A DNA stretch of 64,000 bases from an uncultured Candidatus Saccharibacteria bacterium (lineage in GTDB: Bacteria > Patescibacteriota > Minisyncoccia > Phycocordibacterales > JACOZG01), in assembly GCA_964591715.1 (NCBI GenBank), contig CAZQDR010000004.1, positions 375 through 64,374 on the forward strand. Direction: 5' to 3'. The notes under the pieces are model-generated. The model saw only the letters and a list, made by a program, of their open reading frames with translations, did not search any database and was not told the DNA's origin. This document shows positions 8,911-58,596 of the stretch, one piece after another (within the stretch, counting starts at the first letter, position 1; the number at the start of each line of letters is the position of its first letter). The translations under genes and the position numbers were made by a program.

Positions 8911-8919
8911 GTGAAATTG

Positions 8920-9001
8920 TGGGCGGGAGAGGACTTGAACCTCCACGGATTACTCCACTAGCTCCTAAGGCTAGCGCGTCTGCCAATTTCGCCACCCGCC
9001 C
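8920..9001 (-). tRNA. tRNA-Leu (anticodon TAG)
   Basis: Reverse complement folds as a class II tRNA: acceptor GGGCGGG/CCCGCCC, anticodon stem CTAGC/GCTAG with loop CTTAGGA, long variable arm, T-loop GGTTCAAGTCC. Confidence 0.85.
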
Positions 9002-9048
9002 ATTAGTGGCTTTACGATAACATGTTTTTGGCATAAACTACTAGCATT

Positions 9049-9121
9049 CCGTCCATAGCTCAGTTGGTAGAGCAGTTGCCTCTTAAGCAAACGGTCGGGG
9101 GTTCGAATCCCTCTGGACGGA
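9049..9121 (+). tRNA. tRNA-Lys (anticodon CTT)
   Basis: Acceptor CCGTCCA/TGGACGG, D-arm AGCTCAGTTGGTAGAGC, anticodon loop CTCTTAA, T-loop GGTTCGAATCC. Confidence 0.85.
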
Positions 9122-9133
9122 CTTGACGGATAT

Positions 9134-9215
9134 GCCTGGGTGGTGGAATTGGTATACACGCACGACTTAAAATCGTGTCCCGTCAGGGATGCGGGTTCGA
9201 TTCCCGCCCCAGGCA
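9134..9215 (+). tRNA. tRNA-Leu (anticodon TAA)
   Basis: Acceptor GCCTGGG/CCCAGGC, anticodon stem CACGA/TCGTG with loop CTTAAAA, long variable arm, T-loop GGTTCGATTCC. Confidence 0.85.
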
Positions 9216-9231
9216 CAGCAAAATAAAAAAT

Positions 9232-9303
9232 GGCGCCGTAGCCAAGTGGTAAGGCAAGGGTCTGCAAAACTCTTATACGCGGGTTCGATTCCCACCGGCG
9301 CCT
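9232..9303 (+). tRNA. tRNA-Cys (anticodon GCA); a 3' CCA is encoded at 9304-9306
   Basis: Acceptor GGCGCCG/CGGCGCC, anticodon stem AGGGT/ACTCT with loop CTGCAAA, T-loop GGTTCGATTCC. Confidence 0.85.
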
Positions 9304-9307
9304 CCAA

Positions 9308-12739: not shown

Positions 12740-13348
12740 ATGCACGAACTACCTTCACTGCCCTACAAATATAGTGACTTGGAACCGCACTTTGATGAGG
12801 AGACAATGCGCTTGCATCACACCAAGCATCACCAGACTTATATTGATAAGCTAAACGCCGCGCTCGAGCCTTATCCAGACCTGGCCGCGAAAGACATTTT
12901 CGTTTTGATGAAGGATTTAAGCGCCGTCCCAGAGGGTATCCGTAACGCTGTCCGCAATCATGGTGGGGGTCATTTAAATCATCTGTTGTGGTGGGAGTGG
13001 CTTTCACCAACACCGACCGAGCCAGGTGAGCAAACAATTGGTGCGCTGGATCAGGCATTTGGCAGTGTGGACGGTTTTAAAAAGCAGTTCACCGAGGCGG
13101 CTCTCGCCCGCTTTGGCTCGGGCTGGACCTGGTTGGTGAAGACCGACGGGGGACTAAAGATTGAAAGTACCGCCAATCAAGATACGCCCGTGAGTGAGGG
13201 TAAGGCGGTCATCTTTGGCGTTGATGTTTGGGAGCACGCTTATTATTTAAAATATCAGAACCGGCGCGCTGACTATTTGGCCGCTCTTTGGTCAATAGTT
13301 AACTGGACAAAGTTTGAGCAAGCGCTTACGGCCTCGGTTGCGAAATGA
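12740..13348 (+). CDS. Fe/Mn superoxide dismutase
   Basis: 'LPYKYSDLEPHFDEETMRLHHTKHHQTYIDKLN', 'FGSGWTWL' and 'DVWEHAYYL' are hallmark SOD metal-ligand motifs. Confidence 0.9.
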   Translation: MHELPSLPYKYSDLEPHFDEETMRLHHTKHHQTYIDKLNAALEPYPDLAAKDIFVLMKDLSAVPEGIRNAVRNHGGGHLNHLLWWEWLSPTPTEPGEQTIGALDQAFGSVDGFKKQFTEAALARFGSGWTWLVKTDGGLKIESTANQDTPVSEGKAVIFGVDVWEHAYYLKYQNRRADYLAALWSIVNWTKFEQALTASVAK

Positions 13349-14218: not shown

Positions 14219-16912
14219 ATGCCTCCGCCATTCTCAAACTTTACTTCCAAGGCCAAAGAAGTGATTCGCAAAACTCATGAGTTGGCTATTGAACGCGGCC
14301 AAAATCAAGTTGGGCCGGTTCACCTTTTGGCGGCGCTGTTGTTGCAGGATGAGAGCGTTTTCGTTTCTATCCTCGACAAAATCGAGATTGATACGATTAT
14401 GCTGACGGATTTTGTGATTGAAAATCTGGATGGTGGCGAGCCAGCGACCGTTGTCTCCGCTTCGTACCAAATTTATTTAACACCCGAGCTGGTGCGGGTT
14501 TTTGATACCTCCGCCAAGATTGCCACTAACATGAGCGATGAGTTTGTTTCGACCGAGCACTTACTTTTGGCGCTTTTAGAAACACCAAATCAGGCGCACG
14601 AGATCTTGCAGCGTTTCCGGGTTAACAAAGATCGGGTTTTGAAGGTGATCCAGGATTTACGCGAGAACAAAGATCGGGAAGTCGAGCAGCCCAAAAAAAT
14701 GAAATCAATCGAAAAATTTACCAAAAACCTAACTGATCTAGCCCGGCAAGACAAACTTGATCCGGTGATTGGCCGCGAGGAGGAAGTTCAGCGCATTATG
14801 GAAATATTGTCTCGCCGCACAAAGAACAATCCGATTTTGATTGGTGAGGCTGGTGTTGGTAAGACGGCGATTGCTGAAGGTCTAGCGATTAAAATTGCCC
14901 GTGGCGATGTACCCGAGTCATTGCGTGACAAAGAGTTGGTGTCTTTGGATCTGGGCCTTTTGGTTGCCGGCACTAAATATCGCGGTGAGTTTGAGGAGCG
15001 CCTGAAGAATGTCTTAAAAGAGATTGAGAAGGCGGACAATAAAATAATTGTCTTTATTGATGAGATCCACACGATTGTGGGCGCGGGCGCGGCCGAAGGG
15101 GCGATTGATGCTTCAAATATGTTAAAGCCGGCCTTGGCCCGCGGGGAGTTGCGAGCGATTGGTGCCACCACGATTAAGGAGTATCAAAAACATATTGAAC
15201 GGGATCAGGCGCTGACACGACGCTTCCAGCCTGTGTACGTGGAGGAGCCAAGTATTGATGATGCGGTGACCATTTTACGTGGCTTAAAGCCAAAGTACGA
15301 GGCTCATCATGGTATTCATATTACTGACGCGGCCATTGTAGCGGCGGTGACGCTCTCGAGCCGCTATATAACCGACCGATTTTTACCAGACAAAGCCATC
15401 GATTTAATTGATGAGGCTTCATCGGCTTTGCGTTTGCAATTGGAGAACAAGCCTCAGTCGCTGGAAACGGCGGATACGGCCATTATGAAACTGGAAGTTG
15501 AGAAAGAAGCCCTGAAGCGTGAGGTAGCTGGTAATGATGATAAGAAGGCCAAAGCCCGAATTAAAATTATTGACCGGGAGGTGGGTGAGTTGCGCGAGGA
15601 AGTCAGTGAGCTCGAGTTAAAGTGGAAAAATGAGAAGCAAGTTATTGGCGAGCTGAAGACTTTGAAGCGCGATCTTGACCAGTTACGACTGGAGGCAGAT
15701 CACGCGGAAATGCGCGCCGATCTCTCTCGGGCTGCCGAAATTCGCTATGGCAAAATTCCCGAAGTGGAGAAACAGTTAAAGGCTCGCGAAGCTCGCCTTA
15801 AGAAGCTCCAAACTTCGCGGCGGATTTTGAAAGAGGAGATTACCGAAGAGGATATCGCCAGTGTCGTGGCGCGCTGGACGCATATCCCAGTGATGAAGAT
15901 GCTGGAGAGCGAGTCAACAAAGTTATCGCAAATCGATGACGCTTTGCGCTCACGGGTGCGTGGTCAGGATGAAGCGATTCAAAAGATTGCCGAGGCCGTA
16001 AAGCGCTCCCGTGCTGGTGTAGGCGATCCCGACCGACCGATTGGCTCCTTCATGCTCTTAGGCCCAACGGGCGTGGGTAAAACGGAACTTGCTAAGGCGC
16101 TCGCTAATTTTATGTTTAATGATGAGAAGTCGCTCGTCCGTATCGATATGAGCGAATACATGGAGAAGTACTCCGTCTCTAAAATGATTGGGTCGCCGCC
16201 GGGTTATGTTGGTTATGAGGAGGGCGGCTCTCTCACCGAGACCGTGCGCCATCGACCATACTCGGTCCTACTCTTTGATGAAATTGAGAAGGCTCATCCG
16301 GAAGTCTTCAACATTCTCTTGCAGGTACTCGACAACGGTCGCTTAACAGACTCGAAGGGTCGGACCGTCAACTTCAAAAATACGATTATCTTGCTGACCT
16401 CCAACCTAGGTAGCGAGTTCATGACGCGCTTGCAGCGGATCGGCTTCTCGGCGCTGGGTAACACTGGCGACTTTGAGGACGTGAAGACGCGGATTATGGA
16501 AACGCTGAAAGGGCACTTCCGTCCGGAATTCTTGAATCGCTTGGATGATGTGATTATCTTTAATCCGCTTAAGCCAGAAGTGATTCGGGAGATTGTGGAT
16601 CTGCAATTAAATGTGGTGCGCGAGCGGCTCAAGAATAAAAATCTCGAACTGGAGGTGTCATTGGCTGTCGTGGAATACTTGGCCAAGGAGGGCTTTAGTG
16701 CTGAGTATGGCGTCCGCCCGCTCAAACGTTTGATTCAAAATAAAATTCTTAATTTGGTGGCGGAGTTTATTATTGCCCGAAAGGTGGAAAATGGTGGCGT
16801 CTTGGCTGTTGAGCTCAAGAATGGCTTACCCTCGATCGAGATTCGCCGGACCTTTAGAGGGTCAAAGCGCTCCATCCATCGTCCAGCTCCAGTGGGTTCA
16901 CCAGTCAAGTAA
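14219..16912 (+). CDS. clpB: ATP-dependent chaperone ClpB
   Basis: Clp N-domain repeats, NBD1 '[18 protein letters not shown]', long middle coiled-coil, NBD2 '[19 protein letters not shown]' and '[14 protein letters not shown]'. 897 aa. Confidence 0.95.
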
Positions 16913-17344: not shown

Positions 17345-17375
17345 ATACCATTCAAAATATAAATCCGGAAATTGG

Positions 17376-17459
17376 TGCGCCGGGTAGGATTCGAACCTAC
17401 GTAGCCCGAAGGGCGACAGATTTACAGTCTGTTGCGATTGACCACTCCGCCACCGACGC
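17376..17459 (-). tRNA. tRNA-Tyr (anticodon GTA); CCA encoded (17373-17375)
   Basis: Reverse complement: acceptor GCGTCGG/CCGGCGC (one G-U pair), anticodon stem ACAGA/TCTGT with loop CTGTAAA, long variable arm, T-loop GGTTCGAATCC. A TGcTATAAT extended -10 lies 7 nt upstream. Confidence 0.8.
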
Positions 17460-17503
17460 GCATAGGGGATTATAGCAAAGTTTGACAAAAAACCAATCTA
17501 AGG

Positions 17504-17532
17504 TTGACATTTAAACTCAACCATGGTAAGAT
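17504..17532 (+). promoter_or_regulatory. Putative promoter (TTGACA, 17 bp, TAAGAT)
   Basis: Consensus -35 with a TAnnnT -10, upstream of the 17602 gene. The track ORF 17523-17873 starts inside this -10 and is therefore discounted. Confidence 0.4.
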
Positions 17533-17601
17533 ATAAGCAGTTGGCTATCGTGGGGATAGCCTTGACCTGCGGGGGCAGGAAGATCTTAAAAAGGGGGAGT
17601 A

Positions 17602-18030
17602 ATGATGTACGAGTTGAAAGAAAGTCTGGAGCGTTGGTCGCGGATCACTCGTCCGGCGTCCGAGCTTCGCTTGGTGGTGAGATTTACTCACCACGAGCTG
17701 ATCAACAAGCTGGTCAGATTAGCGAGTTACGCCGACCAGGTGCAATTCCTGGGACGGTTTGTGCGGCTTTGGCGAGAGGGGCGAACGGAGGAGTTCGTGG
17801 CCCTGATTCCATGGCTGGATCGCAAACACACCCAGAGTTTTCTGGCCTGGGTGGGCAATCCGCTGGCGGTTGATCAATCCGCCAAGGGTAGCCTCGTGAC
17901 CTGTCGGTGTCGGGTTGTCCGGACCGAGATCCCGGCCGATATCCAAGCCGAGCTAGACGCCGAGGCTGCGTTCTACGGCATACTCTTCTGGTGTGCCGGA
18001 AGGACTACTGACATTCCTGTCTTGTGCTGA
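17602..18030 (+). CDS. Hypothetical protein (142 aa)
   Basis: Strong RBS GGGGGAG followed by ATGATG, with a terminator hairpin right after the stop. No recognisable family. Confidence 0.4.
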   Translation: MMYELKESLERWSRITRPASELRLVVRFTHHELINKLVRLASYADQVQFLGRFVRLWREGRTEEFVALIPWLDRKHTQSFLAWVGNPLAVDQSAKGSLVTCRCRVVRTEIPADIQAELDAEAAFYGILFWCAGRTTDIPVLC

Positions 18031-18036
18031 CCTACT

Positions 18037-18074
18037 GCAACCTTGTCGCTTTCGAGCGCGAGGTTGCTTTTTTT
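18037..18074 (+). terminator. Rho-independent terminator
   Basis: GCAACCT...AGGTTGC stem followed by T7. Confidence 0.6.
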
Positions 18075-18099
18075 GTCCAGCTCTAGTACACTATCGCCC

Positions 18100-18258
18100 A
18101 TGTCACAGGATCAATTGATCAAGCTGGCCTGCAGCACTTGTAAGCGCATCAATTATTGGAGCCGCAAGAACCGCAAGCTGGTTGAACGAAAAATCGAACT
18201 CAAGAAGTACTGCAAATGGTGTAAGAAGCACACCAAGCATAAGGAGATCAAAAAATAA
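18100..18258 (+). CDS. rpmG: 50S ribosomal protein L33
   Basis: 'MSQDQLIKLACSTCKRINYWSRKNRKLVERKIELKKYCKWCKKHTKHKEIK' matches the L33 zinc-ribbon pattern (CxxC...CxxC, 'ELKKYC', 'HT.H.E.K'). The track ORF begins earlier at 18043, but the terminator occupies that region. Confidence 0.8.
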   Translation: MSQDQLIKLACSTCKRINYWSRKNRKLVERKIELKKYCKWCKKHTKHKEIKK

Positions 18259-18308
18259 GCCGCTCGGCTTTAGCATTTCTTAATATACAGCAGGAAAGAT
18301 ACGACAGT

Positions 18309-18422
18309 ATGGATGCACTCAAAGGAATTTTAACTGTGGTTTTTTGGCTTTTTTTGGTGGCTATTGGCAAGCTGGGGGAAAGCGTATTTAAGCTCGTCAG
18401 TAGCAACAAAGACAGCAAATAG
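18309..18422 (+). CDS. Small hydrophobic protein (37 aa, one TM) between rpmG and tRNA-Trp, at the position SecE often occupies
   Basis: RBS AGGAAAG 8 nt before the ATG. Translation is 'MDALKGILTVVFWLFLVAIGKLGESVFKLVSSNKDSK'. It is below the track's size cut-off. Confidence 0.3.
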   Translation: MDALKGILTVVFWLFLVAIGKLGESVFKLVSSNKDSK

Positions 18423-18471
18423 ACTGCCCAAGCTTTTTATTTTGCCTCAAATCGGCTACTATAAAACTGCT

Positions 18472-18543
18472 GGGCCTATAGTTTCAATGGTAAAACATCG
18501 GTCTCCAAAACCGAGGTTGCAGGTTCGAGTCCTGCTGGGCCCG
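18472..18543 (+). tRNA. tRNA-Trp (anticodon CCA)
   Basis: Acceptor GGGCCTA/TGGGCCC, anticodon stem TCGGT/ACCGA with loop CTCCAAA, T-loop GGTTCGAGTCC. Confidence 0.85.
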
Positions 18544-18586
18544 CTCTAATATTCCCAAAAAAGTTATCTCTGATATACTGAACCGC

Positions 18587-19375
18587 ATGTCTCAAGAACA
18601 ACCAGCTTCCAACGAAGCCGAATTATCGGGTCGTGAACGTCGTCGTTTGCGCCGTGAGGCCATGCGTAGTGGCGAGAGTGTACCTGGCAGCTCAACTGGA
18701 TTTAAAACGGCCGGCATCTGGATTGCGGTTGTCGTTGTTCTTTTACTTATTGTTGGTGGGATCGTAGCGCTCGTAGCCGGCGGCAGTAAGCCGCCGGTGG
18801 ATATTGGGCTTGCGGTACCAGTGCATGCGGGCGATTGGACCACTGGCGCTTCGTTGGCTACGACAACGGCCACCACCACAACTATCTCGCTGGTGGAGTA
18901 TAGCGACTACCAGTGCCCTGCTTGTGCCTATTATCACCCGTGGGTAAAGCAGCTGCTCACTGATGTTCCTGAACTGGCTTTTACTTATCGACATTTCCCA
19001 CTCTCGCAGATCCACAAAAATGCTGAACCGGCCGCCCGCGCGGCCGAGGCAGCTGGCCGTCAGGGTCGTTATTGGGAGATGCATGATTTGCTTTTTGAAC
19101 ATCAGGCTGAATGGTCGGAGGAGACAGCGCCCAAGGCCGAGGCTATGTTTACGCAGTACGCTGAATCAGTTGGGGTTAATCTAATGGAATTTAAGAAGGA
19201 TATGTCTAGTGATTTTGTGAAGAACAAAGTCTCGAGCGACTTTCAGACCGGTGTTCAGTCGGCAGTCAATGCGACCCCCACCTTCTTCTTGAACGGAAAA
19301 TTTATCAATAATCCTCGCAGCTATAATGAATTTCTCGAGCTTGTTAAAGGCACCAGTACTGCTCCTCGGATTTAG
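18587..19375 (+). CDS. Membrane-anchored DsbA-family thiol:disulfide oxidoreductase
   Basis: N-terminal TM helix and a thioredoxin fold with the CxxC motif 'YQCPACAYYHPW'. 262 aa. Confidence 0.7.
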   Translation: MSQEQPASNEAELSGRERRRLRREAMRSGESVPGSSTGFKTAGIWIAVVVVLLLIVGGIVALVAGGSKPPVDIGLAVPVHAGDWTTGASLATTTATTTTISLVEYSDYQCPACAYYHPWVKQLLTDVPELAFTYRHFPLSQIHKNAEPAARAAEAAGRQGRYWEMHDLLFEHQAEWSEETAPKAEAMFTQYAESVGVNLMEFKKDMSSDFVKNKVSSDFQTGVQSAVNATPTFFLNGKFINNPRSYNEFLELVKGTSTAPRI

Positions 19376-22787: not shown

Positions 22788-22909
22788 GACTAACTCCTAA
22801 ACAGTTGCCAAAGACCAGGCACCCACTGCTTATGGGTGGCGATCTTCAACAAGAAGATCACATTTTTAGGCTACAATACTAAATATAAAAGGTCAAGTTT
22901 AAAGTCTGG

Positions 22910-22981
22910 TGTCCCCGACAGGAATCGAACCTGTATCTCCAGCTTCGGAGGCCGGTGTTCTATCCATTAGACTACGGGGAC
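22910..22981 (-). tRNA. tRNA-Arg (anticodon CCG); CCA encoded (22907-22909)
   Basis: Reverse complement: acceptor GTCCCCG/CGGGGAC, anticodon stem CCGGC/GCTGG with loop CTCCGAA, T-loop GGTTCGATTCC. Confidence 0.85.
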
Positions 22982-22982
22982 A

Positions 22983-23006
22983 GGTGTGCCCATCCTAGCA
23001 GAAATT
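22983..23006. repeat. 24-bp direct repeat, copy 1 (AGGTGTGCCCATCCTAGCAGAAAT)
   Basis: Matches 23362-23385 at 22/24 positions. Lies between the 5' end of tRNA-Arg and the stop of gene 23021-23326. Confidence 0.6.
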
Positions 23007-23020
23007 GGGCGAAATAAAAA

Positions 23021-23326
23021 TTAGGCCGCTTTGCGAAGTGAGTCTTCAATCTGGGCAGCCGCGGCCGTGGTTTTGGCTAGTTCTGCCTGCAATTGCTCAA
23101 TGTTCTTTTGAAGAGCTGCCTCGTGATCTTCCAAACTTTTTTGGAGCTTCTCGATTTGGGTCTGGAGAGCGGTGGTTGAAGATTCTATTTTGGCGATCTC
23201 TTGTTGTTTGCGCTCGATTTCTTGTGACTTGGTAGCTAACTCTTTATTTTTGCTTTCCAACTCCTTTTTCTCACCATTAATTTGGCGTTTTAGGCTTTCA
23301 ATACTAGCGGGTGAAATAGGGCTCAT
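23021..23326 (-). CDS. Hypothetical coiled-coil protein (101 aa)
   Basis: Heptad-rich Glu/Lys/Gln sequence ('KELESKNKELATKSQEIERKQQEIAKIES'). Flanked by the 24-bp direct repeats. Confidence 0.4.
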   Translation of the reverse strand: MSPISPASIESLKRQINGEKKELESKNKELATKSQEIERKQQEIAKIESSTTALQTQIEKLQKSLEDHEAALQKNIEQLQAELAKTTAAAAQIEDSLRKAA

Positions 23327-23361
23327 GAAATATGGGGGTGGTTAATTTTTATAAAGTTGTA

Positions 23362-23385
23362 GGTATGCCTATCCTAGCAGAAATC
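23362..23385. repeat. 24-bp direct repeat, copy 2 (AGGTATGCCTATCCTAGCAGAAAT)
   Basis: Second copy, upstream of tRNA-Leu(CAA) and just beyond the start of gene 23021-23326. Confidence 0.6.
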
Positions 23386-23412
23386 TTTGATTTAGGGTAT
23401 ATTAATTGCCAA

Positions 23413-23494
23413 GCCGAAGTGGCGGAATTGGCAGACGCGCACGACTCAAAATCGTGTTCCTTCGGGAGTGTGGGTTCGATTCCCACCTTCGGCA
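23413..23494 (+). tRNA. tRNA-Leu (anticodon CAA)
   Basis: Acceptor GCCGAAG/CTTCGGC, anticodon stem CACGA/TCGTG with loop CTCAAAA, long variable arm, T-loop GGTTCGATTCC. Confidence 0.85.
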
Positions 23495-23552
23495 CAGATT
23501 GGCTAAGGCCAAGTTCGTTCTTTAATTTAGGGTACCCAAAAAGGAGAATCCG

Positions 23553-23978
23553 ATGGAGATAGATTTGAGCTTTCTGTGGGTTCTCGATGATCTGCGCGCT
23601 AAGTTCATGTGGGGATTACGGGCGGTCATTGGGGACAAAATAACGATAGAGCAGTACCGTATTTTAAACATTATTGCCAAGGAGGGAAGAAATGACCTAA
23701 CCTGTGTCGCTATTCGCAAACAGCTGCCGGGTTTTCCTGATCTTACTCGGACAATCGACTGCTTGGTAAAAAAGGGATTGGTTACTCGTCAACGGTCTGA
23801 TGCTGATCGTCGGATGGTCTTGATTAGCCTGACAGGAGAGGGCCGGGCCATCTTCGAGATGGTTGATCAGAGGATCAAGCAGTTATTCGCTATGGGCTTT
23901 AAGGGAAAGGACCTGGATGACTTAAAAAAACTCGTGACGCTTGCCCGGAAGCTAGTCTATCGCTGCAGACCTCACTAG
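23553..23978 (+). CDS. MarR-family transcriptional regulator
   Basis: RBS AAAGGAG. Winged-HTH region 'ITIEQYRILNIIAKEG..LTCVAIRKQLPGFPDLTRTIDCLVKKGLVTRQRSDADRRMVLISLTGEG'. Confidence 0.7.
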   Translation: MEIDLSFLWVLDDLRAKFMWGLRAVIGDKITIEQYRILNIIAKEGRNDLTCVAIRKQLPGFPDLTRTIDCLVKKGLVTRQRSDADRRMVLISLTGEGRAIFEMVDQRIKQLFAMGFKGKDLDDLKKLVTLARKLVYRCRPH

Positions 23979-30883: not shown

Positions 30884-31273
30884 ATGCAGTTTGGAACTTT
30901 GCCGTTTCAATATCTCGGTTGGCACTATACGCTCGCCCTTAAAGATTATGCCGTTAATGCCGGCAATATTCTCCGCTTTATTTATCACTTCTTTTCTCTG
31001 CCGACATTAATCAAGACGTTTTTTGCGCCGTGGCGTCGACTGGGCGAGCAGTATCGCAAGGTCTTTGATCCCGGTGCCTGGTTTGAGACCTTTATTTTAA
31101 ACGCGCTGATGCGGTTGCTCGGAATGTTTTTTCGTCTCTGGTTAATTTTAACCGGTCTGGCGGTACTGGCGGTGGCTAGCGTCGCCGCAGTTGTTATCTT
31201 TATATTTTGGTTGATCTTGCCGCTGGCGGTCGCGATCATCTTTCTCGGCGGACTTAACTTGCTCTGGTCATGA
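30884..31273 (+). CDS. Hypothetical membrane protein (129 aa)
   Basis: Two or three hydrophobic helices. No recognisable family. Confidence 0.4.
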   Translation: MQFGTLPFQYLGWHYTLALKDYAVNAGNILRFIYHFFSLPTLIKTFFAPWRRLGEQYRKVFDPGAWFETFILNALMRLLGMFFRLWLILTGLAVLAVASVAAVVIFIFWLILPLAVAIIFLGGLNLLWS

Positions 31274-33675
31274 ACGCCTATGCTAAAATTATTCGCTCCA
31301 GTCGACTCTACCCGGTATTAATTTTGGAGGAGTTAATCTCCAGCGCTGCCCGAAACATCTTGTTGAAAGTAGGCACGCTCGCCATTTTGTTGGTCCTCGG
31401 TGTCTCGTTGCCCAACGGGATTGCTCCGCAAGTTTCTGGATTGTTGCTAATGTTAATTGCGATTCTTTTGATCTTGGCGGCGATCGAGCTTTTCTTCCGC
31501 TCTTATTATTACGAAAGTATTATTACTAATGAGTACACCGATCAGGATATTTTTACTTTTACGGTGGGCCGGATCCTAAGGAATATTCATCACGACAAAA
31601 TCTTAAAGGCCTATCTATACTCACCAACCGGTCGGCAGGTCACGCGACGTCTGGGTCTAGATCGAAATGCCGTTGACGCTTTTTTGGCCAGTCATGCCGC
31701 CTTACCGACCGAGCCGCTCCACTTTGCGGCGGGAGAGGTTTTGACTCTGCGCCAGCTCACTACCTGGTTACTGACAGCTTACCCGGCGTGGCAAGAGTGG
31801 CTACTCACCTTTGACTTGCAGACCGATGACGTTTTGGCCGTCGTTGATTGGGTGGTCAGGGATATTGAGACGGCGGCGCGACGGCGCCGCTGGTGGTCGG
31901 CCGAGCGCCTAGAGCGCGTAGCGCCGATTGCTCAAGACTGGTCCTACGGTGAGACCTTTGGCCTAATGCGTTACAGTAAGGATTTAACCGCTACCGCTAC
32001 GCCAGAAGCGCCCCAGGCGACCATCAGCCAGGAGGTCCAGGCGCTCGAAACCGTTTTAGCTCGTGTTCATGAGGCCAATGCTCTCTTGGTGGGGGCGACG
32101 GCCGAGAATCTTGATTCGGTCTTATGGCGGTTTGCTCGGACGCTTAAAGCTGGTGCCACTTTACCAGCCTTACAAAACAAGCGCTTAATTGTCTTGCACG
32201 TAGCGGACTTTTTAGCCGCCTCCAGTGACCGACAAAATTTAGAACAAGGTCTCAGTAAGTTGCTGGCCGAAGCCGCCGCCGCTGGTAACGTTATTTTGGC
32301 GATTGATAATTTTCCTAACTTACTCCAGGCGGGAGAGGCACTCCAAGCTGACGTGGTCGCCTTACTCGAACCTTATTTAAATAGCGGGACCTTGCAACTG
32401 GTAGCGCTCTCGGAGACCGAAGTCTTTCATCGCGCGCTTGAACCACGAGCCGGTTTGATGACCCGCTTCGAGAAGATCGACGTTAACGAGGGCAATGATG
32501 AGCGGATTATTACCGAGCTAGAAGACTTGGCCGAAGAATTGGAGCGCACTAATCCGGTTGTCATTACTTATCCCGCCCTCCGGATGATTTACACCAATGC
32601 CGAGCAATACTTTCAAACGGATTCTTTAACTGATAAGGCAACTGACTTGTTGATTGAGGCGGTACCATGGGCGCTCGGTCATGGTAAAAGTGTGATTGAT
32701 CGGTCAGTCGTCGAGGCGCTCACCAAAGACAAGACCAGTATTCCGGTCGGTGCCATTGACGCTGGCGAAAAGCAGAAGTTGCTTGGGTTGGAGGCGGCCC
32801 TGCATGCTCGGGTCATTGGCCAAGCGACAGCACTCAAGGCCGTGGCCAATGCCATGCGTCGTGGTCGTACCGGTATCCGTAATCCAAAGCGACCCATGGG
32901 CTCGTTCCTGTTTTTGGGTCCAACTGGTGTTGGTAAGACTGAAACAGCGAAGGCGCTCGCCGCCGTCTTCTTTGGCCGTGAGGATGCGCTCTTGCGTCTG
33001 GATATGTCAGAGTATCAGTCGAGCGATGCTTTGGCTCGATTAATCGGCTCGTTTGGGAGTGGTCAGCCTGGTGTGTTGGCAAATCTCTTGCGTCAAAATC
33101 CTTACGGGGTGCTGTTGCTGGATGAATTTGAAAAGACCAATCGCGAAGTACTGAATTTGTTTTTGCAGATTTTAGATGAGGGTTTCTTTTCAGATATGAA
33201 TGGTAAGCGGGTTAATGCCCGTAATATTATTTTTATTGCCACCTCCAATGCGGGCGCCGAGCTCCTGTGGCAGATGGTCAAGTCGGGCCGTGACCCCGTC
33301 GCGGCCAAGGATGAATTAGTGAACAATTTGGTCAGCCAAGGGATTTATAAGCCGGAACTTTTGAACCGCTTCGACGATGTGATTATCTTCCACCCCTTGT
33401 CCGAGACGGATTTGCTCCAGGTGGCTCGACTGCAATTGGAACGTCTAGCCACGCGCCTCAAAAAACAAGGTATAATGGTCAGCGTTACCGATGAGCTGGT
33501 GGCGACCGTGGTGGCGCAAGGCAGTAACGCGGTATTTGGGGCTCGGCCGATGCAGCGCTTTATTCAAGACGAAGTCGAACAGCGCCTGGCCGAGGCGATG
33601 ATTAAAGGTGAGGTGGGCAGTGGTAGTTATGTTAGCTTCGACGGCGACCTTACGCTGCACGCCAGCAAAAAATAA
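31270..33675 (+). CDS. Membrane-anchored Hsp100/Clp-family AAA+ protein with degenerate NBD1 and intact NBD2
   Basis: N-terminal TM helices. The NBD1-like region aligns to ClpB but Walker A is replaced by 'LLVGATAENLDS' and Walker B by 'ILAIDNF'. NBD2 is intact: '[19 protein letters not shown]', 'VLLLDEFEKTNREV', 'IFIATSN' and 'GARPMQRFI'. Confidence 0.7.
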   Translation: MNAYAKIIRSSRLYPVLILEELISSAARNILLKVGTLAILLVLGVSLPNGIAPQVSGLLLMLIAILLILAAIELFFRSYYYESIITNEYTDQDIFTFTVGRILRNIHHDKILKAYLYSPTGRQVTRRLGLDRNAVDAFLASHAALPTEPLHFAAGEVLTLRQLTTWLLTAYPAWQEWLLTFDLQTDDVLAVVDWVVRDIETAARRRRWWSAERLERVAPIAQDWSYGETFGLMRYSKDLTATATPEAPQATISQEVQALETVLARVHEANALLVGATAENLDSVLWRFARTLKAGATLPALQNKRLIVLHVADFLAASSDRQNLEQGLSKLLAEAAAAGNVILAIDNFPNLLQAGEALQADVVALLEPYLNSGTLQLVALSETEVFHRALEPRAGLMTRFEKIDVNEGNDERIITELEDLAEELERTNPVVITYPALRMIYTNAEQYFQTDSLTDKATDLLIEAVPWALGHGKSVIDRSVVEALTKDKTSIPVGAIDAGEKQKLLGLEAALHARVIGQATALKAVANAMRRGRTGIRNPKRPMGSFLFLGPTGVGKTETAKALAAVFFGREDALLRLDMSEYQSSDALARLIGSFGSGQPGVLANLLRQNPYGVLLLDEFEKTNREVLNLFLQILDEGFFSDMNGKRVNARNIIFIATSNAGAELLWQMVKSGRDPVAAKDELVNNLVSQGIYKPELLNRFDDVIIFHPLSETDLLQVARLQLERLATRLKKQGIMVSVTDELVATVVAQGSNAVFGARPMQRFIQDEVEQRLAEAMIKGEVGSGSYVSFDGDLTLHASKK

Positions 33676-40721: not shown

Positions 40722-40769
40722 CCCGCCATTATACCAAACTTAGATTAAAAACCAGTGAGGCTAAAGTTG

Positions 40770-40840
40770 TTGCCGGACTTGGATTCGAACCAAGATACTC
40801 GCCTCCAAAGGGCGATGTCCTACCATTAGACGATCCGGCA
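40770..40840 (-). tRNA. tRNA-Gln (anticodon TTG)
   Basis: Reverse complement: acceptor TGCCGGA/TCCGGCA (U1-A72, as in bacterial tRNA-Gln), anticodon stem TCGCC/GGCGA with loop CTTTGGA, T-loop GGTTCGAATCC. Confidence 0.85.
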
Positions 40841-40983
40841 ATTATCTGACAATGGTCACTTTATACCATGTTTGGCCCGCTTTAGTCTATTCGTTCTCTA
40901 ATCCTTTGACTAAGGTAAATAATTGTGGTAGTTCTTGAGTTGGGTTCGAAAATAATCATTAGATCCTTTCAGAAAGGGACAAC

Positions 40984-41415
40984 ATGACGCGAATTTCTAT
41001 TACGGTACAGTCCAGGCACGGATCCCACCAGTTTGAGGCGGAGATCCACGAACACGCGAATCTGGCCGACTTCCACCTTGACCCGGAAACTTTTTACCGC
41101 GAGTGGGGGAGCAAGGTGCCGGAATTGCCTCATCACGAAATTGAGATTGTCGTACCTGGCAGTGATTTCTTCTCGACGCGGGTGCTGCACATGCATCGAT
41201 CTCGCAAAAGCGAAGCACTGTTCGTTTGCTTCCCTCACCGCATCGCCACAATCGAAGCGGCTGGCCGAATTTTCCGGACCTGGTGTCTGGGTTCGGTGGC
41301 GACCATCGTGGAGGATGTTGATCTCAACACTCTTTACGCGGAGTGTGGCGTTCGCCTGGAAGTGGTCGTCGGTGAGCGCTATGGGATTATGATCCAACAC
41401 TTCGCCGTGGCGTAG
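40984..41415 (+). CDS. Hypothetical protein (143 aa) in GC-rich segment
   Basis: ORF with a weak RBS. The opposite-strand ORF looks non-protein-like. No recognisable family. Confidence 0.3.
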   Translation: MTRISITVQSRHGSHQFEAEIHEHANLADFHLDPETFYREWGSKVPELPHHEIEIVVPGSDFFSTRVLHMHRSRKSEALFVCFPHRIATIEAAGRIFRTWCLGSVATIVEDVDLNTLYAECGVRLEVVVGERYGIMIQHFAVA

Positions 41416-41604
41416 ACTGGAGTAAACCTATCGATAATTTGTTTGGCTTGTGACGTTGTCACGGGCTTTTTTCTTGTCCAAAATTCCCCTGAGCAGCCTA
41501 TAGAAGTTTAAATAAGTCAGTCTTGACGAACTGATTCATAAGTACTAGTTTTTGAGTAGTACTTAGTGTCAATGTTTAGTCCTTTAACTGTTAAGGGGGC
41601 CAAA

Positions 41605-42252
41605 ATGCTAGTAATTTCCCGATGCTTGAACGCGGGCATCAGAATCGGGGAAGACACCGAAGTTAAGGTGCTGCGACTGGGAACTCGCCGGGTGACGCTT
41701 GGGGTGGAGTGTCCCCCTGGGATACCAGTTTTCCGCAGCGAAGTAGCGCCGGAAATGTCGTCACCAGAGTCGCAAGCCCCGCCGCTAGACATCCGGGTTT
41801 TGATTGTTGAGGACATCCCCGTGCACGGACTTTTGATCGAGCGAAGCTTGTGCAAAAAGGGAGTCAGCCAGATTGAGAAGGTGACAAGCGCTGAAGATGC
41901 GATCAGGCTTCTGGAATCAATTCAGCAGAAGGAGCTGACACGGCCCGATTTGGTTTTGCTTGACCTTGGTTTACCGGGCGTGTCCGGCCTTGAGGTGCTC
42001 AAGAAGATCAGATCAGCGTTCGGTTGGGAAATCGCGGTGGTGGTTCTGACCTGCAGTAACCTCGCCGAGGATTACCGCCAGGCTATGGCGGCGGGTGCCA
42101 ACGCTTTCGTCTCCAAGGGCGAGAGTTACGAAGCTTTTAGACAGCAGCTTTTGTCGATCATCAACTTTTGGGGTAAGGTGGCCTATCGCTTTCGGTATGG
42201 CTTGGGCTCGGCGCGCGCCGAGCCTTTTTTGATCAGTGCGGAGCGCTGGTAA
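41605..42252 (+). CDS. CsrA-like RNA-binding domain fused to a response-regulator receiver (REC) domain
   Basis: RBS AAGGGGG before ATG 41605. The N-terminus 'MLVISRCLNAGIRIGEDTEVKVLRLGTRRVTLGVECPPGIPVFRSEV' aligns with CsrA 'MLILTRRVGE..IGDD..V.VL...G.QVRIGI.APK.V.V.REEI'. The C-terminus is a REC domain with the phospho-acceptor region 'LVLLDLGLPGVSG', T/S 'VVVLTCS' and K 'AFVSKG'. Confidence 0.6.
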   Translation: MLVISRCLNAGIRIGEDTEVKVLRLGTRRVTLGVECPPGIPVFRSEVAPEMSSPESQAPPLDIRVLIVEDIPVHGLLIERSLCKKGVSQIEKVTSAEDAIRLLESIQQKELTRPDLVLLDLGLPGVSGLEVLKKIRSAFGWEIAVVVLTCSNLAEDYRQAMAAGANAFVSKGESYEAFRQQLLSIINFWGKVAYRFRYGLGSARAEPFLISAERW

Positions 42253-50393: not shown

Positions 50394-50873
50394 ATGAATA
50401 ACAAAACATTAGTTTCCCTTATTGTAATTATTGTTATTATCATTGGCGCGGTGTGGTATTTTAACCGCCCAGCGCCAGTAGTCTCTGAACCAATTATCCC
50501 AACACCAAGCGAGATGGCGACCACCACCCTGCCTTTACCAACTGGCACTTCCACTGTAAGCACGAGCACCAGTTCGGTCCCGACTGCTACCACAACACCT
50601 AAGGTGTTAACGGTCACTGGTTCCAATTTTGCTTTCGCTCCCACTCAACTAACGGTCAAAAAGGGCGAGACCGTAACAATCAACTTCGAAAATACTGGCG
50701 GTTTGCATGACTGGAAGATTGATGAGTTTAATGCCGCCACTAAAAAGATTAACGGCGGCCAAACCGATTCTGTTACTTTCGTTGCTGACAAAGCTGGCTC
50801 GTTTGAGTATTACTGTTCGGTCGGAACGCATCGCCAAATGGGTATGCGTGGTACCCTTATCGTGACGCCGTAA
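50394..50873 (+). CDS. Membrane-anchored cupredoxin (type-1 blue-copper, plastocyanin/azurin-like) protein
   Basis: N-terminal TM helix, Thr/Ser/Pro linker, then a cupredoxin domain with the ligand pattern 'LHDW' ... 'YYCSVGTHRQMGM' (His, Cys, His, Met). Confidence 0.7.
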   Translation: MNNKTLVSLIVIIVIIIGAVWYFNRPAPVVSEPIIPTPSEMATTTLPLPTGTSTVSTSTSSVPTATTTPKVLTVTGSNFAFAPTQLTVKKGETVTINFENTGGLHDWKIDEFNAATKKINGGQTDSVTFVADKAGSFEYYCSVGTHRQMGMRGTLIVTP

Positions 50874-50888
50874 GTTTAATTTTTCAGA

Positions 50889-52175
50889 ATGTTTCGTCGC
50901 CCCGTTCTCTACGCTTTATTTTTTATCAACTTGGGAATTGTCGGCTTCATCTGGTGGAGCGGTTCCCACTCTCTTTTGGTCAACCAAAGCGGTGTCGCCA
51001 TTGCCTTCGGTCGCTTGGCGGGATTGCTGATGGAGTATTTTATTTTGGTCCAGCTCGTATTGATTGGTCGGATCAGACCAGTGGAGCGAGAGTTTGGTCA
51101 TGATAAATTAAATCGGGTTCATCGGACACTCGGATACAGTTTGGCGGCGGTTTTGCTCCTTCACCCATTTTTGTTGACGCTCGGTTACGCCTGGCAGAGT
51201 AATCGTTCGCTGATTGGTCAATTCTCAAATTTCCTCACTAGTTGGGATGATGTGGCTAAAGCGGCCGCCGCCCTAGTTATCTTTGTTGTTATTATCGGCA
51301 TTTCCGTGGCGATCGTTCGTCGCAAACTGCGATACGAGACTTGGTACTTTAGCCACCTGTCACTATACGTGGCAATTTTCTTGGCGTTTGATCATCAAAC
51401 CAAAACGGCCGACGTGAGTTTTGGTTGGCCGCTCTACTATTGGCTTGGCTTAAACTACTTGGTGTTTGGCCTGTTGCTTGCTTATCGCTTTCTCCGGCCA
51501 CTCTACCTCTTCAATCGTCATCGCTTTACTGTAGAGAAAGTGGTACCCGAGACACACGATGTTCAGTCCGTTTATATTCGCGGACGTAAACTCGAGCGCT
51601 ATCGGTTTGAGGCGGGGCAGTTTGTTAATGTTACCTTCCTGCGACGAGGGATGTGGTACACGCATCCATTCTCCTTTTCGGCGGCGCCCAACGGTAAGTA
51701 TCTCCGGCTGTCCATTAAGCGCAGCGGGGACTTTACCTCGCAGATTCAGAATATTAAGCCAGGCACTAAAGTGATTTTAGATGGTCCGCTCGGCCGCTTC
51801 ACCACGCGCGCGGCTACTCGCTCCAAGTTTTTGCTAATCGCTGGTGGTATCGGAATTACGCCGCTGCGTTCGTTAACCGAGGAACTAGCGGCAGCGAAGA
51901 AGGATTTTATATTATTGTTTGCGAATAAAACGGAAGCGGATGTGGTTTTTAAAACTGAACTGGAGCAATTGGCGCTGGGGGACCGCTGGCACAATCTATT
52001 CTCGAGTCAGGGTCAATATGTCGACGCCGCACAAATTAAAACTATCGCAGCAGATTTTATGGAGCGCGAAGTTTACTTATGCGGCCCGCCACCAATGTTG
52101 AAGGGGGTGCGAAAAGTACTCTTGGATCTTGGTTTGCCGGCGGAGCAGCTCCACTACGAAATCTTTGCTTACTAG
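50889..52175 (+). CDS. Ferric-reductase/NOX-family membrane flavocytochrome (6-TM heme domain + FAD + NAD(P)H domains)
   Basis: TM His pairs ('HRTLGY...LLLHPF', 'FSHLSLY...FDHQ'), FAD-binding 'HPFSFSA', NAD-binding 'LLIAGGIGITPLRS', and C-terminal 'CGPPPM'. Confidence 0.7.
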   Translation: MFRRPVLYALFFINLGIVGFIWWSGSHSLLVNQSGVAIAFGRLAGLLMEYFILVQLVLIGRIRPVEREFGHDKLNRVHRTLGYSLAAVLLLHPFLLTLGYAWQSNRSLIGQFSNFLTSWDDVAKAAAALVIFVVIIGISVAIVRRKLRYETWYFSHLSLYVAIFLAFDHQTKTADVSFGWPLYYWLGLNYLVFGLLLAYRFLRPLYLFNRHRFTVEKVVPETHDVQSVYIRGRKLERYRFEAGQFVNVTFLRRGMWYTHPFSFSAAPNGKYLRLSIKRSGDFTSQIQNIKPGTKVILDGPLGRFTTRAATRSKFLLIAGGIGITPLRSLTEELAAAKKDFILLFANKTEADVVFKTELEQLALGDRWHNLFSSQGQYVDAAQIKTIAADFMEREVYLCGPPPMLKGVRKVLLDLGLPAEQLHYEIFAY

Positions 52176-57782: not shown

Positions 57783-57941
57783 ATGACTATGGACGAAGAG
57801 ACAATGCAGCAGGACAGCGTAGTTTGTCCTGAGTGCGGTAGCGACATGAAGAAGGATGGAGAAATGATGACTTGCGAGAAGTGTGGTCACACTATGCCAG
57901 CTGGCGAGGGCAGCAGCGAGGACAAGGAGGAGATGGTCTAA
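57783..57941 (+). CDS. Small zinc-ribbon protein (52 aa)
   Basis: 'CPECGSDMKK...CEKCGHTM' and an acidic tail. TATAAAT 7 nt upstream (possibly leaderless) and a strong terminator right after the stop. Below the track's size cut-off. Confidence 0.35.
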   Translation: MTMDEETMQQDSVVCPECGSDMKKDGEMMTCEKCGHTMPAGEGSSEDKEEMV

Positions 57942-57961
57942 GCCCGAACCGAACGCAACCA

Positions 57962-58004
57962 CAAAAAGGGTGCTATACTCAAGGAGTAGAGCACCCTTTT
58001 TAGT
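57962..58004 (+). terminator. Rho-independent terminator
   Basis: AAAAAGGGTGCTATACTC...GAGTAGAGCACCCTTTTT hairpin. Confidence 0.7.
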
Positions 58005-58017
58005 CTGCAAACTCATT

Positions 58018-58596
58018 ATGAATAATACTCCCATTACGGAATCAATAGTGCTCGGCGGCGGCTGCTTTTGGTGTACCGAAGCGGTGTTTAAAATGTTGCG
58101 CGGCGTTAAGTCGGTAATGCCGGGCTATGCGGGCGGTACCAATACCAAGTCGGGCCAGTCGCCAACCTATGAGGAAGTCTCAACGGGTAAGACGGGTCAC
58201 GCCGAGGCGGTTAAAATTGTTTACGATCCACTCCTAATTAAGCTTGAGGATTTACTGACTGTCTTTTTTGCCACTCACGATCCGACCACGCCCGACCGCC
58301 AGGGTAATGACATTGGTCCCCAGTATCGCTCAATTATTTTGTATAACACGTCCGAGCAGAGAGTGGCAGCTGAAATGTTTATTAAAGAATTAAATGCCAG
58401 TAGCGCGAGTGGGGCGCCGATTGTGACCGAGCTTAAGCCGCTTAAGAACTTTTATGAAGCCGAGGACTATCACCAGGATTATTACGCCAAGAACTCGCGG
58501 CAGATGTATTGTCAGGTGGTGATCAATCCCAAGCTTGAGAAAGTCCAGCAAAAGTTTGGCGCCCTACTTGATCGCCCCGAGGAGCACGTGCGCTAA
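58018..58596 (+). CDS. msrA: Peptide methionine sulfoxide reductase MsrA
   Basis: 'ESIVLGGGCFWCTEAVF' (the active-site GCFWC) and 'YHQDYY'. Start taken at MNNTPI after the terminator. The track ORF starts upstream. Confidence 0.9.
   Translation: MNNTPITESIVLGGGCFWCTEAVFKMLRGVKSVMPGYAGGTNTKSGQSPTYEEVSTGKTGHAEAVKIVYDPLLIKLEDLLTVFFATHDPTTPDRQGNDIGPQYRSIILYNTSEQRVAAEMFIKELNASSASGAPIVTELKPLKNFYEAEDYHQDYYAKNSRQMYCQVVINPKLEKVQQKFGALLDRPEEHVR

Follow-up and report, generated by a model that had tools for sequence, protein, structure and literature searches.

The DNA described here is a 64,000-nucleotide stretch of contig CAZQDR010000004.1 (assembly GCA_964591715.1), from an uncultured Candidatus Saccharibacteria bacterium; this whole stretch is referred to below as the window. 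At 41605..42252 its forward strand carries a single open reading frame (ORF) in which a CsrA-type domain, normally associated with RNA binding, is joined to a two-component response regulator's receiver domain (REC). An earlier note on this DNA, made from the letters alone, had recognized the pairing and proposed that an RNA-binding module had been placed under two-component control. The features of the locus are as follows; pLDDT is the predicted local distance difference test score of the AlphaFold2 (AF2) model.

41445..41473, forward strand: terminator-like element, with its hairpin at 41445-41467, ending the upstream ORF, from a sequence scan
41523..41551, forward strand: promoter-like element TTGACG-N17-TAGTTT, about 50 nucleotides 5' of the ATG, read from the sequence
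41593..41599, forward strand: Shine-Dalgarno sequence AAGGGGG, 5 nucleotides 5' of the ATG
41605..42252, forward strand: CsrA-receiver hybrid response-regulator gene; complete ORF of 215 amino acids plus stop, with both Pfam domains above their gathering thresholds
41605..41754, forward strand: CsrA/RsmA-type domain, residues 1-50, with strands beta1-beta5 and without the C-terminal alpha-helix
41755..41796, forward strand: flexible Pro/Ser/Glu-rich linker, about residues 51-64; pLDDT below 50 at residues 48-56
41797..42195, forward strand: receiver (REC), residues 65-197, of the Rcp1/phytochrome-response-regulator type, the long alpha5 of which ends in 'FW'
42196..42249, forward strand: non-conserved C-terminal tail of 18 residues (198-215), without counterpart in relatives; pLDDT below 50
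42204..42231, forward strand: intrinsic-terminator-like hairpin (42204-42225; 9 pairs, 7 of them G-C) and T-run, within the 3' end of the ORF

The gene and its two domains

The resemblance of the first ~50 residues to CsrA was confirmed by hmmscan against Pfam, in which CsrA (PF02599) scored 43.1 bits against a gathering threshold of 27 (E=4.2e-11), with residues 1-50 matching positions 1-50 of the 53 in the profile. With residues 1-62 as the query, phmmer retrieved the solved CsrA/RsmE chains 1t3o (7e-07), 5dmb, 2jpp, 1vpz, 2bti and 1y00, in a gapless register over residues 1-51. CsrA is an interdigitated homodimer with two RNA faces, each built from beta1 and beta5 of opposite chains; L4 and R44 are critical residues, and R44 is surface-exposed and required for RNA binding but not for the fold (PMC7652899). 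Measured against the four sequences from which the canonical residues were defined (those of B. subtilis, RsmE, P. aeruginosa and E. coli), the window protein keeps M1, L2, I4 (L4), R6, G15, G33, P37, V42, R44 and E46. The earlier note had asked whether the GGA-binding residues survive, naming the arginine near the C-terminal strand as an example; R44 is in place, as are L2, I4, R6, V42 and E46. Canonical H43 is replaced by F, and Y48 together with the IYQRIQ helix of canonical CsrA has given way to the linker.

The remainder of the protein had been described as a canonical receiver, and so it proved: Response_reg (PF00072) matched residues 65-180 with 66.2 bits (gathering threshold 30.2; E=3.6e-18), and the residues of the phosphorylation site and its switch are all present, namely the acidic pair E69-D70, the phospho-acceptor D120 (in LVLLDLGLP), T149 (in VVVLTCS), the aromatic switch residue F168 and K171 (in AFVSKG). 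The nearest solved receivers by sequence are 6xvu, 3kht, 8avv, 1k68, 1i3c and 1k66. By structure, Foldseek placed 6xvu first (root-mean-square deviation, rmsd, of 1.5 A over 131 columns) and after it 1i3c, 1k68 and 1k66, with a probability of 1.00 for many receivers. The domain belongs to the Rcp1/RcpA/bacteriophytochrome-response-regulator subtype, with alpha5 ending in F188-W189. In the AF2 monomer, for which the mean pLDDT is 79.3, it is modelled with five strands and five helices at pLDDT 84-96.

All 68 aligned relatives start with MLV/I..R at the same point, or contain it where their start has been mis-called, and ATG 41605 is therefore the true start. An upstream GTG at 41566 was considered and ruled out, as the homologues start at MLV. 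The good ribosome-binding site claimed in the earlier note was also found, and the position aligned with it in the related loci L091 and L092 reads AAAGGAA. The sister locus L091 has TTGACA-N17-TAGTTT at an equal spacing from its start codon (about 41-69 of L091); nucleotide identity between window and L091 is only ~65% inside the gene, yet this promoter-like element has been kept. It was not called by a consensus promoter scan because its -10 hexamer is weak. The hairpin at 41445..41473 sets the CsrA-REC gene apart as its own transcription unit. At the other end, the last 18 codons of the ORF read through the gene's own terminator hairpin, and residues 198-215 are probably an incidental product of this read-through. 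A 6-phosphogluconate dehydrogenase gene (42274) begins just 22 nucleotides past the CsrA-REC stop codon. An exact look-up returned no record of the fusion protein or of the product of the neighbouring ORF.

The fusion family, its neighbours and its hosts

The CsrA-receiver architecture is a conserved and diverse family rather than a one-off. A word-indexed search yielded about 34 clusters at 90% identity; the two Pfam domains occur together in 33 relatives (P0001-P0031, P0033 and P0034), almost all of them metagenomic. P0001 is 100% identical to the window protein and the others share 39-58% identity with it. Most are 195-214 amino acids long, one of 229 having an over-extended start call, and their annotations vary from 'CsrA' through 'Rcp1' (several, from JGI) to 'response regulator'. 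A profile built from these proteins was run against a set of 1.84 billion cluster representatives (50% identity); its best 150 matches included about 38 full-length members (196-231 amino acids), and the others were mostly multi-receiver hybrids. The top score of that search went to P0241 (399 amino acids, 472-1671 of L173), a CsrA-REC-REC protein; P0278 (287 amino acids) is a variant with a different C-terminal extension. Scanning with the family alignment gave three full-length loci (L006-L008) among the matches listed for a genome collection and none among those listed for a metagenome collection. Plasmid and phage collections held no full-length match, so there is no evidence for a mobile element as the vehicle of the gene.

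Conservation was counted in an alignment of 69 family members. In the CsrA part, L2 is kept in 68, R6 in all 69, P37 in 68, R44 in 67 and E46 in 63, with I, L or V at position 4 in 67 and V or I at position 42 in 68. The RNA-face residues L2, I/L4, R6, V42, R44 and E46 are thus strongly conserved across a diverse family. The receiver is conserved to a similar extent (E69 in 68, D70 in 66, D120 in 67, S/T149 in 66, F/Y168 in 68, K171 in 68, F188 in 67 and W189 in 68). Between the two lies a linker of 7-54 residues, with a median of 21 when counted from E46 to the acidic pair of beta1, which is rich in P, A and E. Purifying selection acts on both halves, at the positions predicted to serve RNA binding and phosphorylation.

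The genes next to the relatives are also informative. The following neighbours were found.

L001-L003: PAS-HisKA-HATPase kinase and a receiver of 148 amino acids, upstream on the same strand
L005: fragments of HisKA/HATPase, immediately upstream
L006: divergent PAS kinase, abutting the gene
L087: receiver of 142 amino acids only, without a kinase, directly upstream
L175/L176: receiver of 147 amino acids and a kinase, convergent, downstream
L004, L007, L008, L089 and L174: no kinase or receiver neighbour

The neighbouring kinases are of the PAS_4-HisKA-HATPase_c type, with no PHY or GAF match on record. The adjoining receivers of L001 and L087, both of which were aligned, belong to the same FW-type subfamily, with 38-43% identity. 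A triad of PAS kinase, FW-type receiver of ~145 amino acids and CsrA-REC recurs, in whole or in part, at L001 (4935-8441), L002, L003, L175/L176, L087 and L006, a layout suggestive of either a branched pathway or a phosphate sink. Because kinase and receiver neighbours recur in this way, members of the family in general form part of two-component pathways, frequently in a kinase/single-domain receiver/CsrA-REC triad.

The window copy differs in this respect. The absence of an adjacent histidine kinase, already remarked upon in the earlier note, was extended to the other scanned ORFs of at least 150 amino acids in the window, among which 46 protein scans detected neither a histidine kinase nor Hpt, and no further receiver, CsrA or FliW domain; tblastn of the whole 64-kb window with the fusion protein found no paralogue. 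This copy is an orphan within the available 64-kb sequence, and the lack of a kinase is a trait of the copy and not of the family.

As to the host, the contig is assigned to Paceibacterota: the TopA protein of the window is 70-83% identical to proteins of Paceibacterota, Vogelbacteria and the 'Patescibacteria group', and the short IF-2 (498 amino acids) and DnaX (344 amino acids) seem to fit the reduced genome of a member of the Candidate Phyla Radiation (CPR). The named relatives of the fusion protein come from elsewhere: P0033 from a 'Phycisphaerae bacterium', L006 from a Phycisphaerales metagenome-assembled genome (MAG), L008 from a Planctomycetaceae MAG and L007 from a 'Spirochaetia' MAG. 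The DnaB encoded beside P0008, a main-clade member (L001), shares 72-74% identity with proteins from Phycisphaerae. Neighbour-joining groups the window protein with P0010 (55% identity), and the pair adjoins the Planctomycetota main clade, to which the window protein has a mean identity of 52%. The guanine plus cytosine (GC) content is 50.8% for the window, ~51% for the contigs of P0010 and 61-66% for the main-clade loci that were checked, with the exception of L005 (46%). The fusion gene itself has a GC content of 0.559 against a mean of 0.517 (standard deviation 0.027) for the ORFs of the window (z=1.55). Since this deviation is mild, the main support for transfer comes from phylogeny and host taxonomy, which suggest that the gene passed from Planctomycetota into a Patescibacteria lineage, the direction in which we infer it to have moved, and was then retained.

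One further ORF may or may not belong with the fusion gene.

40984..41415, forward strand: orphan ORF of 143 amino acids, directly 5' of the fusion gene; GC 0.556, with its own terminator; present in the separately stored public assembly L086

This ORF had no Pfam or PDB match even at E<=10, and no relative was found in any of the fetched homologue loci besides the identical L086. It was considered as a FliW-like or Hpt-like partner and rejected, as it has neither a Pfam or PDB match nor a relative beside any homologue. A single-sequence AF2 model (pLDDT 38.6) was too low to interpret. The opposite strand of 40984-41415 holds an equally long ORF, leaving the coding strand unproven, and membership of the ORF in the CsrA-REC unit is uncertain. 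A tRNA-Gln gene (40769-40840, reverse strand) borders the two-gene segment 40984-42252, which lies ~1.5 standard deviations above the window mean in GC content; this border could mark the integration site of a laterally acquired segment.

Elsewhere in the window there is a set of redox and oxidative-stress genes that is notable for a Patescibacteria contig.

12740-13348: Fe/Mn superoxide dismutase
57883-58596: methionine sulfoxide reductase
50394-52175: cupredoxin beside a ferric-reductase-like flavoprotein
18587-19372: DsbA-like thioredoxin

Two ClpB-type AAA+ genes are present (14219-16912 and 31270-33675). The second protein (801 amino acids) matches only the D2 (AAA_2) half and ClpB_D2-small, its N-terminal ~540 residues being without a Pfam match at E<=1e-5. 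Nine tRNA genes occur in the 64 kb (8919-9306, 17373-18544, 22907-23495 and 40769-40840), four of them clustered at 8.9-9.3 kb.

A proposed phospho-switched CsrA and the competing explanations

The proposal that an RNA-binding module has come under two-component control is the best-supported reading of these data. We consider it probable, with moderate confidence, that the gene encodes a hybrid response regulator with a CsrA-type RNA-binding output, acting as a homodimeric, phospho-switched post-transcriptional regulator in which both the RNA binding and the switch are deduced from sequence. The N-terminal domain would form an interdigitated homodimer like that of every solved CsrA, each RNA site combining beta1 from one chain with beta5 from its partner. 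Such a dimer would explain why the receiver is C-terminal, the reverse of the usual order in response regulators, and why the M1-L2 start is so strict; the beta1 RNA face needs a free N-terminus, which would provide a structural reason for the output domain coming first. The dimer may then bind GGA-type sites in mRNA leaders and so control translation or stability.

Phosphorylation of D120 would be expected to re-pack the tethered receivers, either against each other through the alpha4-beta5-alpha5 face or onto the beta1/beta5 faces of CsrA, and this re-packing would switch RNA binding on or off. The receiver would thus represent a built-in, phospho-controlled counterpart of the small RNA (sRNA) sponges or the FliW and CesT antagonists of ordinary CsrA. 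FliW acts allosterically at the C-terminal side of B. subtilis CsrA (PMC7652899), and the receiver is attached where FliW acts, so a tethered, phospho-dependent antagonist or activator is structurally plausible. The phosphate for the window copy might come from a kinase whose gene lies elsewhere or from small phospho-donors. A broader account is put forward only tentatively: that a CPR bacterium acquired a self-contained phospho-switched CsrA from Planctomycetota and kept it, the receiver taking the place of sponges and FliW, and that the orphan may turn a phospho-signal or the level of acetyl-phosphate into global translational control.

Several observations weigh against a phospho-switched RNA-binding regulator. 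The scores for the NCBIfam CsrA equivalogs fall below their cut-offs (42.4 against 70.1 bits for TIGR00202 and 36.9 against 73 bits for PRK01712), as would fit a CsrA core without its C-terminal helix and tail. In the window protein and its clade, canonical R/K7, R/K31 and K38, which we take to be RNA-backbone contacts in the RsmE-RNA structure, are replaced by C7, T31 and P38, and RNA affinity or specificity may consequently differ from GGA recognition. The AF2 monomer offers no positive support: its CsrA part, at pLDDT 52-78, has three strands (11-13, 19-25 and 30-35) and lacks the terminal strands matching beta1 and beta5. Such moderate confidence would be expected for a domain-swapped dimer, which a monomer model cannot build, and the model therefore speaks neither for nor against the CsrA fold. 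The earlier note had also recommended looking for orphan kinases, GGA-rich leaders and sRNAs. Within the window none was found, several relatives having a kinase beside them: there is no GGA motif in the fusion gene's own leader, Rfam matched only 9 tRNAs in the window and no Csr/Rsm sRNA, and a scan for GGA clusters gave no candidate sponge there, the densest A.GGA and GGA stretches of the window lying within or beside coding sequence. One such stretch, at 23553-23978, was entertained as a sponge RNA and dismissed, being explained by an ORF of 141 amino acids. This ORF, on the forward strand between tRNA-Leu and parB, is MarR-like by eye. The lack of a kinase in the window belongs with these points.

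Much of this evidence could be turned to a different explanation, in which the CsrA-like domain no longer binds RNA and acts as a mere dimerisation module for two Rcp1-type receivers, the output consisting of protein-protein contacts of the receivers as in single-domain response regulators. The replaced basic residues at 7, 31 and 38 of the window clade, the sub-cut-off equivalog scores and the want of visible GGA targets or sponge RNAs in the window are all in keeping with it, as is the fact that Rcp1-type receivers, judging from the PDB matches, are normally stand-alone dimers. It is difficult to reconcile with the retention of R44, needed for RNA binding and not for the fold (PMC7652899), in 67 of the 69 members, nor does it account for the equally persistent L2, the I, L or V at position 4 (67 of 69) and the V or I at position 42. 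Other clades of the family, moreover, often have R or K at positions 7, 31 and 38, and fresh basic residues (R13, K21, R24 and R28/R29) have become conserved in the family. A loss of RNA binding is on balance unlikely.

The phospho-switched regulator could also have been stranded, that is, acquired laterally and cut off from its kinase, so that it is now either a constitutively unphosphorylated CsrA held in a fixed state or a gene in decay. Scans of the 64-kb window turned up neither a kinase nor an Hpt nor a further receiver, and relatives usually have a kinase or receiver neighbour; the elevated GC content (0.559 against 0.517, z=1.55) is common to the orphan ORF next door and the segment has a tRNA-Gln border, and the 18-residue tail reads through the terminator. 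Against decay, the ORF is intact with every phosphorylation and RNA-face residue kept, and at the sister orthologue (P0010 at L091; 55% identity, similar GC content) gene, promoter-like element and Shine-Dalgarno sequence have all been preserved, a sign that selection has long maintained them. The GC deviation is in any case mild, and the 64 kb covers a part of the genome, so that a kinase may lie elsewhere. A stranded or decaying gene is accordingly judged improbable.

That the gene is an assembly or binning artefact, in which a Planctomycetota gene was chimerically joined to a Patescibacteria contig, is very improbable in spite of the nearly exclusive Planctomycetota affiliation of the named relatives and a gene GC content slightly above that of the host, because the window is 100% identical over 40807-42197, including the junction on the tRNA-Gln side, to L086 (Logan SRR12762304), which may share reads with the window contig, and also given that 0.559 is far from the 0.61-0.66 of Planctomycetota loci and within the host range, that the nearest relative, P0010, is likewise on 51% GC DNA, and that mean identity to the Planctomycetota clade is only 52%.

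Relation to known systems and significance

The earlier note had regarded the architecture as uncharacterised. This holds in so far as a full-text literature search for a REC-CsrA fusion found no functional study; the architecture has, however, already been catalogued and forms a conserved family in the databases. Response regulators with a CsrA output appear in the classification of Galperin (2006; J Bacteriol 188:4169) where, according to the account given in PMC2222644, they are listed alongside ANTAR as RNA-binding outputs. A comprehensive 2020 review of Csr systems (PMC7652899) uses neither 'fused' nor 'response regulator domain' and makes no mention of a CsrA linked to a receiver. Another review (PMC12471899) lists E. 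coli CsrA as an 'orphan RR'; this seems to be a distorted echo of the catalogue and was not taken as evidence.

With CsrA, RsmA and RsmE (1y00, 2jpp, 1t3o and 5dmb) the window protein shares the beta1-beta5 core over a gapless first 50 residues, and the same interdigitated dimer would be expected of it. It is unlike them in having no C-terminal helix or tail, in carrying C7, T31, P38 and F43, and in being joined to a receiver. The CsrA-output response regulators of Galperin (2006), as far as they are described in PMC2222644, have in common with it the union of REC and CsrA in one polypeptide. They differ in that the present copy is from Patescibacteria, the named relatives found here being from Planctomycetota.

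ANTAR response regulators (AmiR, EutV and PdtaR), in which the receiver is N-terminal, are similar in that a receiver controls an RNA-binding output. ANTAR, however, is a helical domain that binds paired hairpins and blocks terminator formation, as opposed to the N-terminal beta-sandwich CsrA here, the output of which would most likely act on translation or stability. For EutV, RNA binding is governed by phosphorylation (PMC7602753).

The receiver itself is closest to Rcp1, RcpA, RcpB and the Deinococcus bacteriophytochrome response regulator (1i3c, 1k68, 1k66 and 6xvu), with 25-31% identity, an rmsd of 1.5-2.5 A and the same F-W ending of alpha5. Those proteins are stand-alone receivers paired with phytochrome kinases, unlike the present one with its N-terminal CsrA; the kinases beside the relatives are PAS-HisKA-HATPase proteins and not recognisable phytochromes, and the window is without a kinase.

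In the systems that have been reviewed, control of CsrA is indirect and is exerted by decoy sRNAs or partner proteins, the protein antagonists being FliW, which is allosteric and binds the CsrA C-terminus, and CesT, which is competitive (PMC7652899). By analogy, the receiver may be likened to FliW and CesT, since CsrA would be modulated by a protein domain and not by an sRNA. It has no sequence or fold relation to either, and as a modulator it would differ from them in its covalent tether and its dependence on phosphorylation.

The pairing of REC with CsrA was thus catalogued two decades ago and does not constitute a categorically new system. The new elements are a divergent copy, in a CPR genome, with no kinase found in the window, the assignment of the receiver subtype, the evidence from individual residues for retention of both functions and the recurrent kinase/receiver neighbourhood.

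If true, a CsrA carrying a phospho-receiver of its own would connect a sensor kinase to translation by the shortest path possible. Among RNA-binding response regulators it would be only the second structural class, next to ANTAR, and it would represent a mode of Csr regulation without experimental description, in a lineage with very few regulators. The Phycisphaerae relatives offer natural kinase-regulator pairs, and the kinase-less, apparently lateral CPR copy bears on gene regulation in bacteria with minimal genomes.

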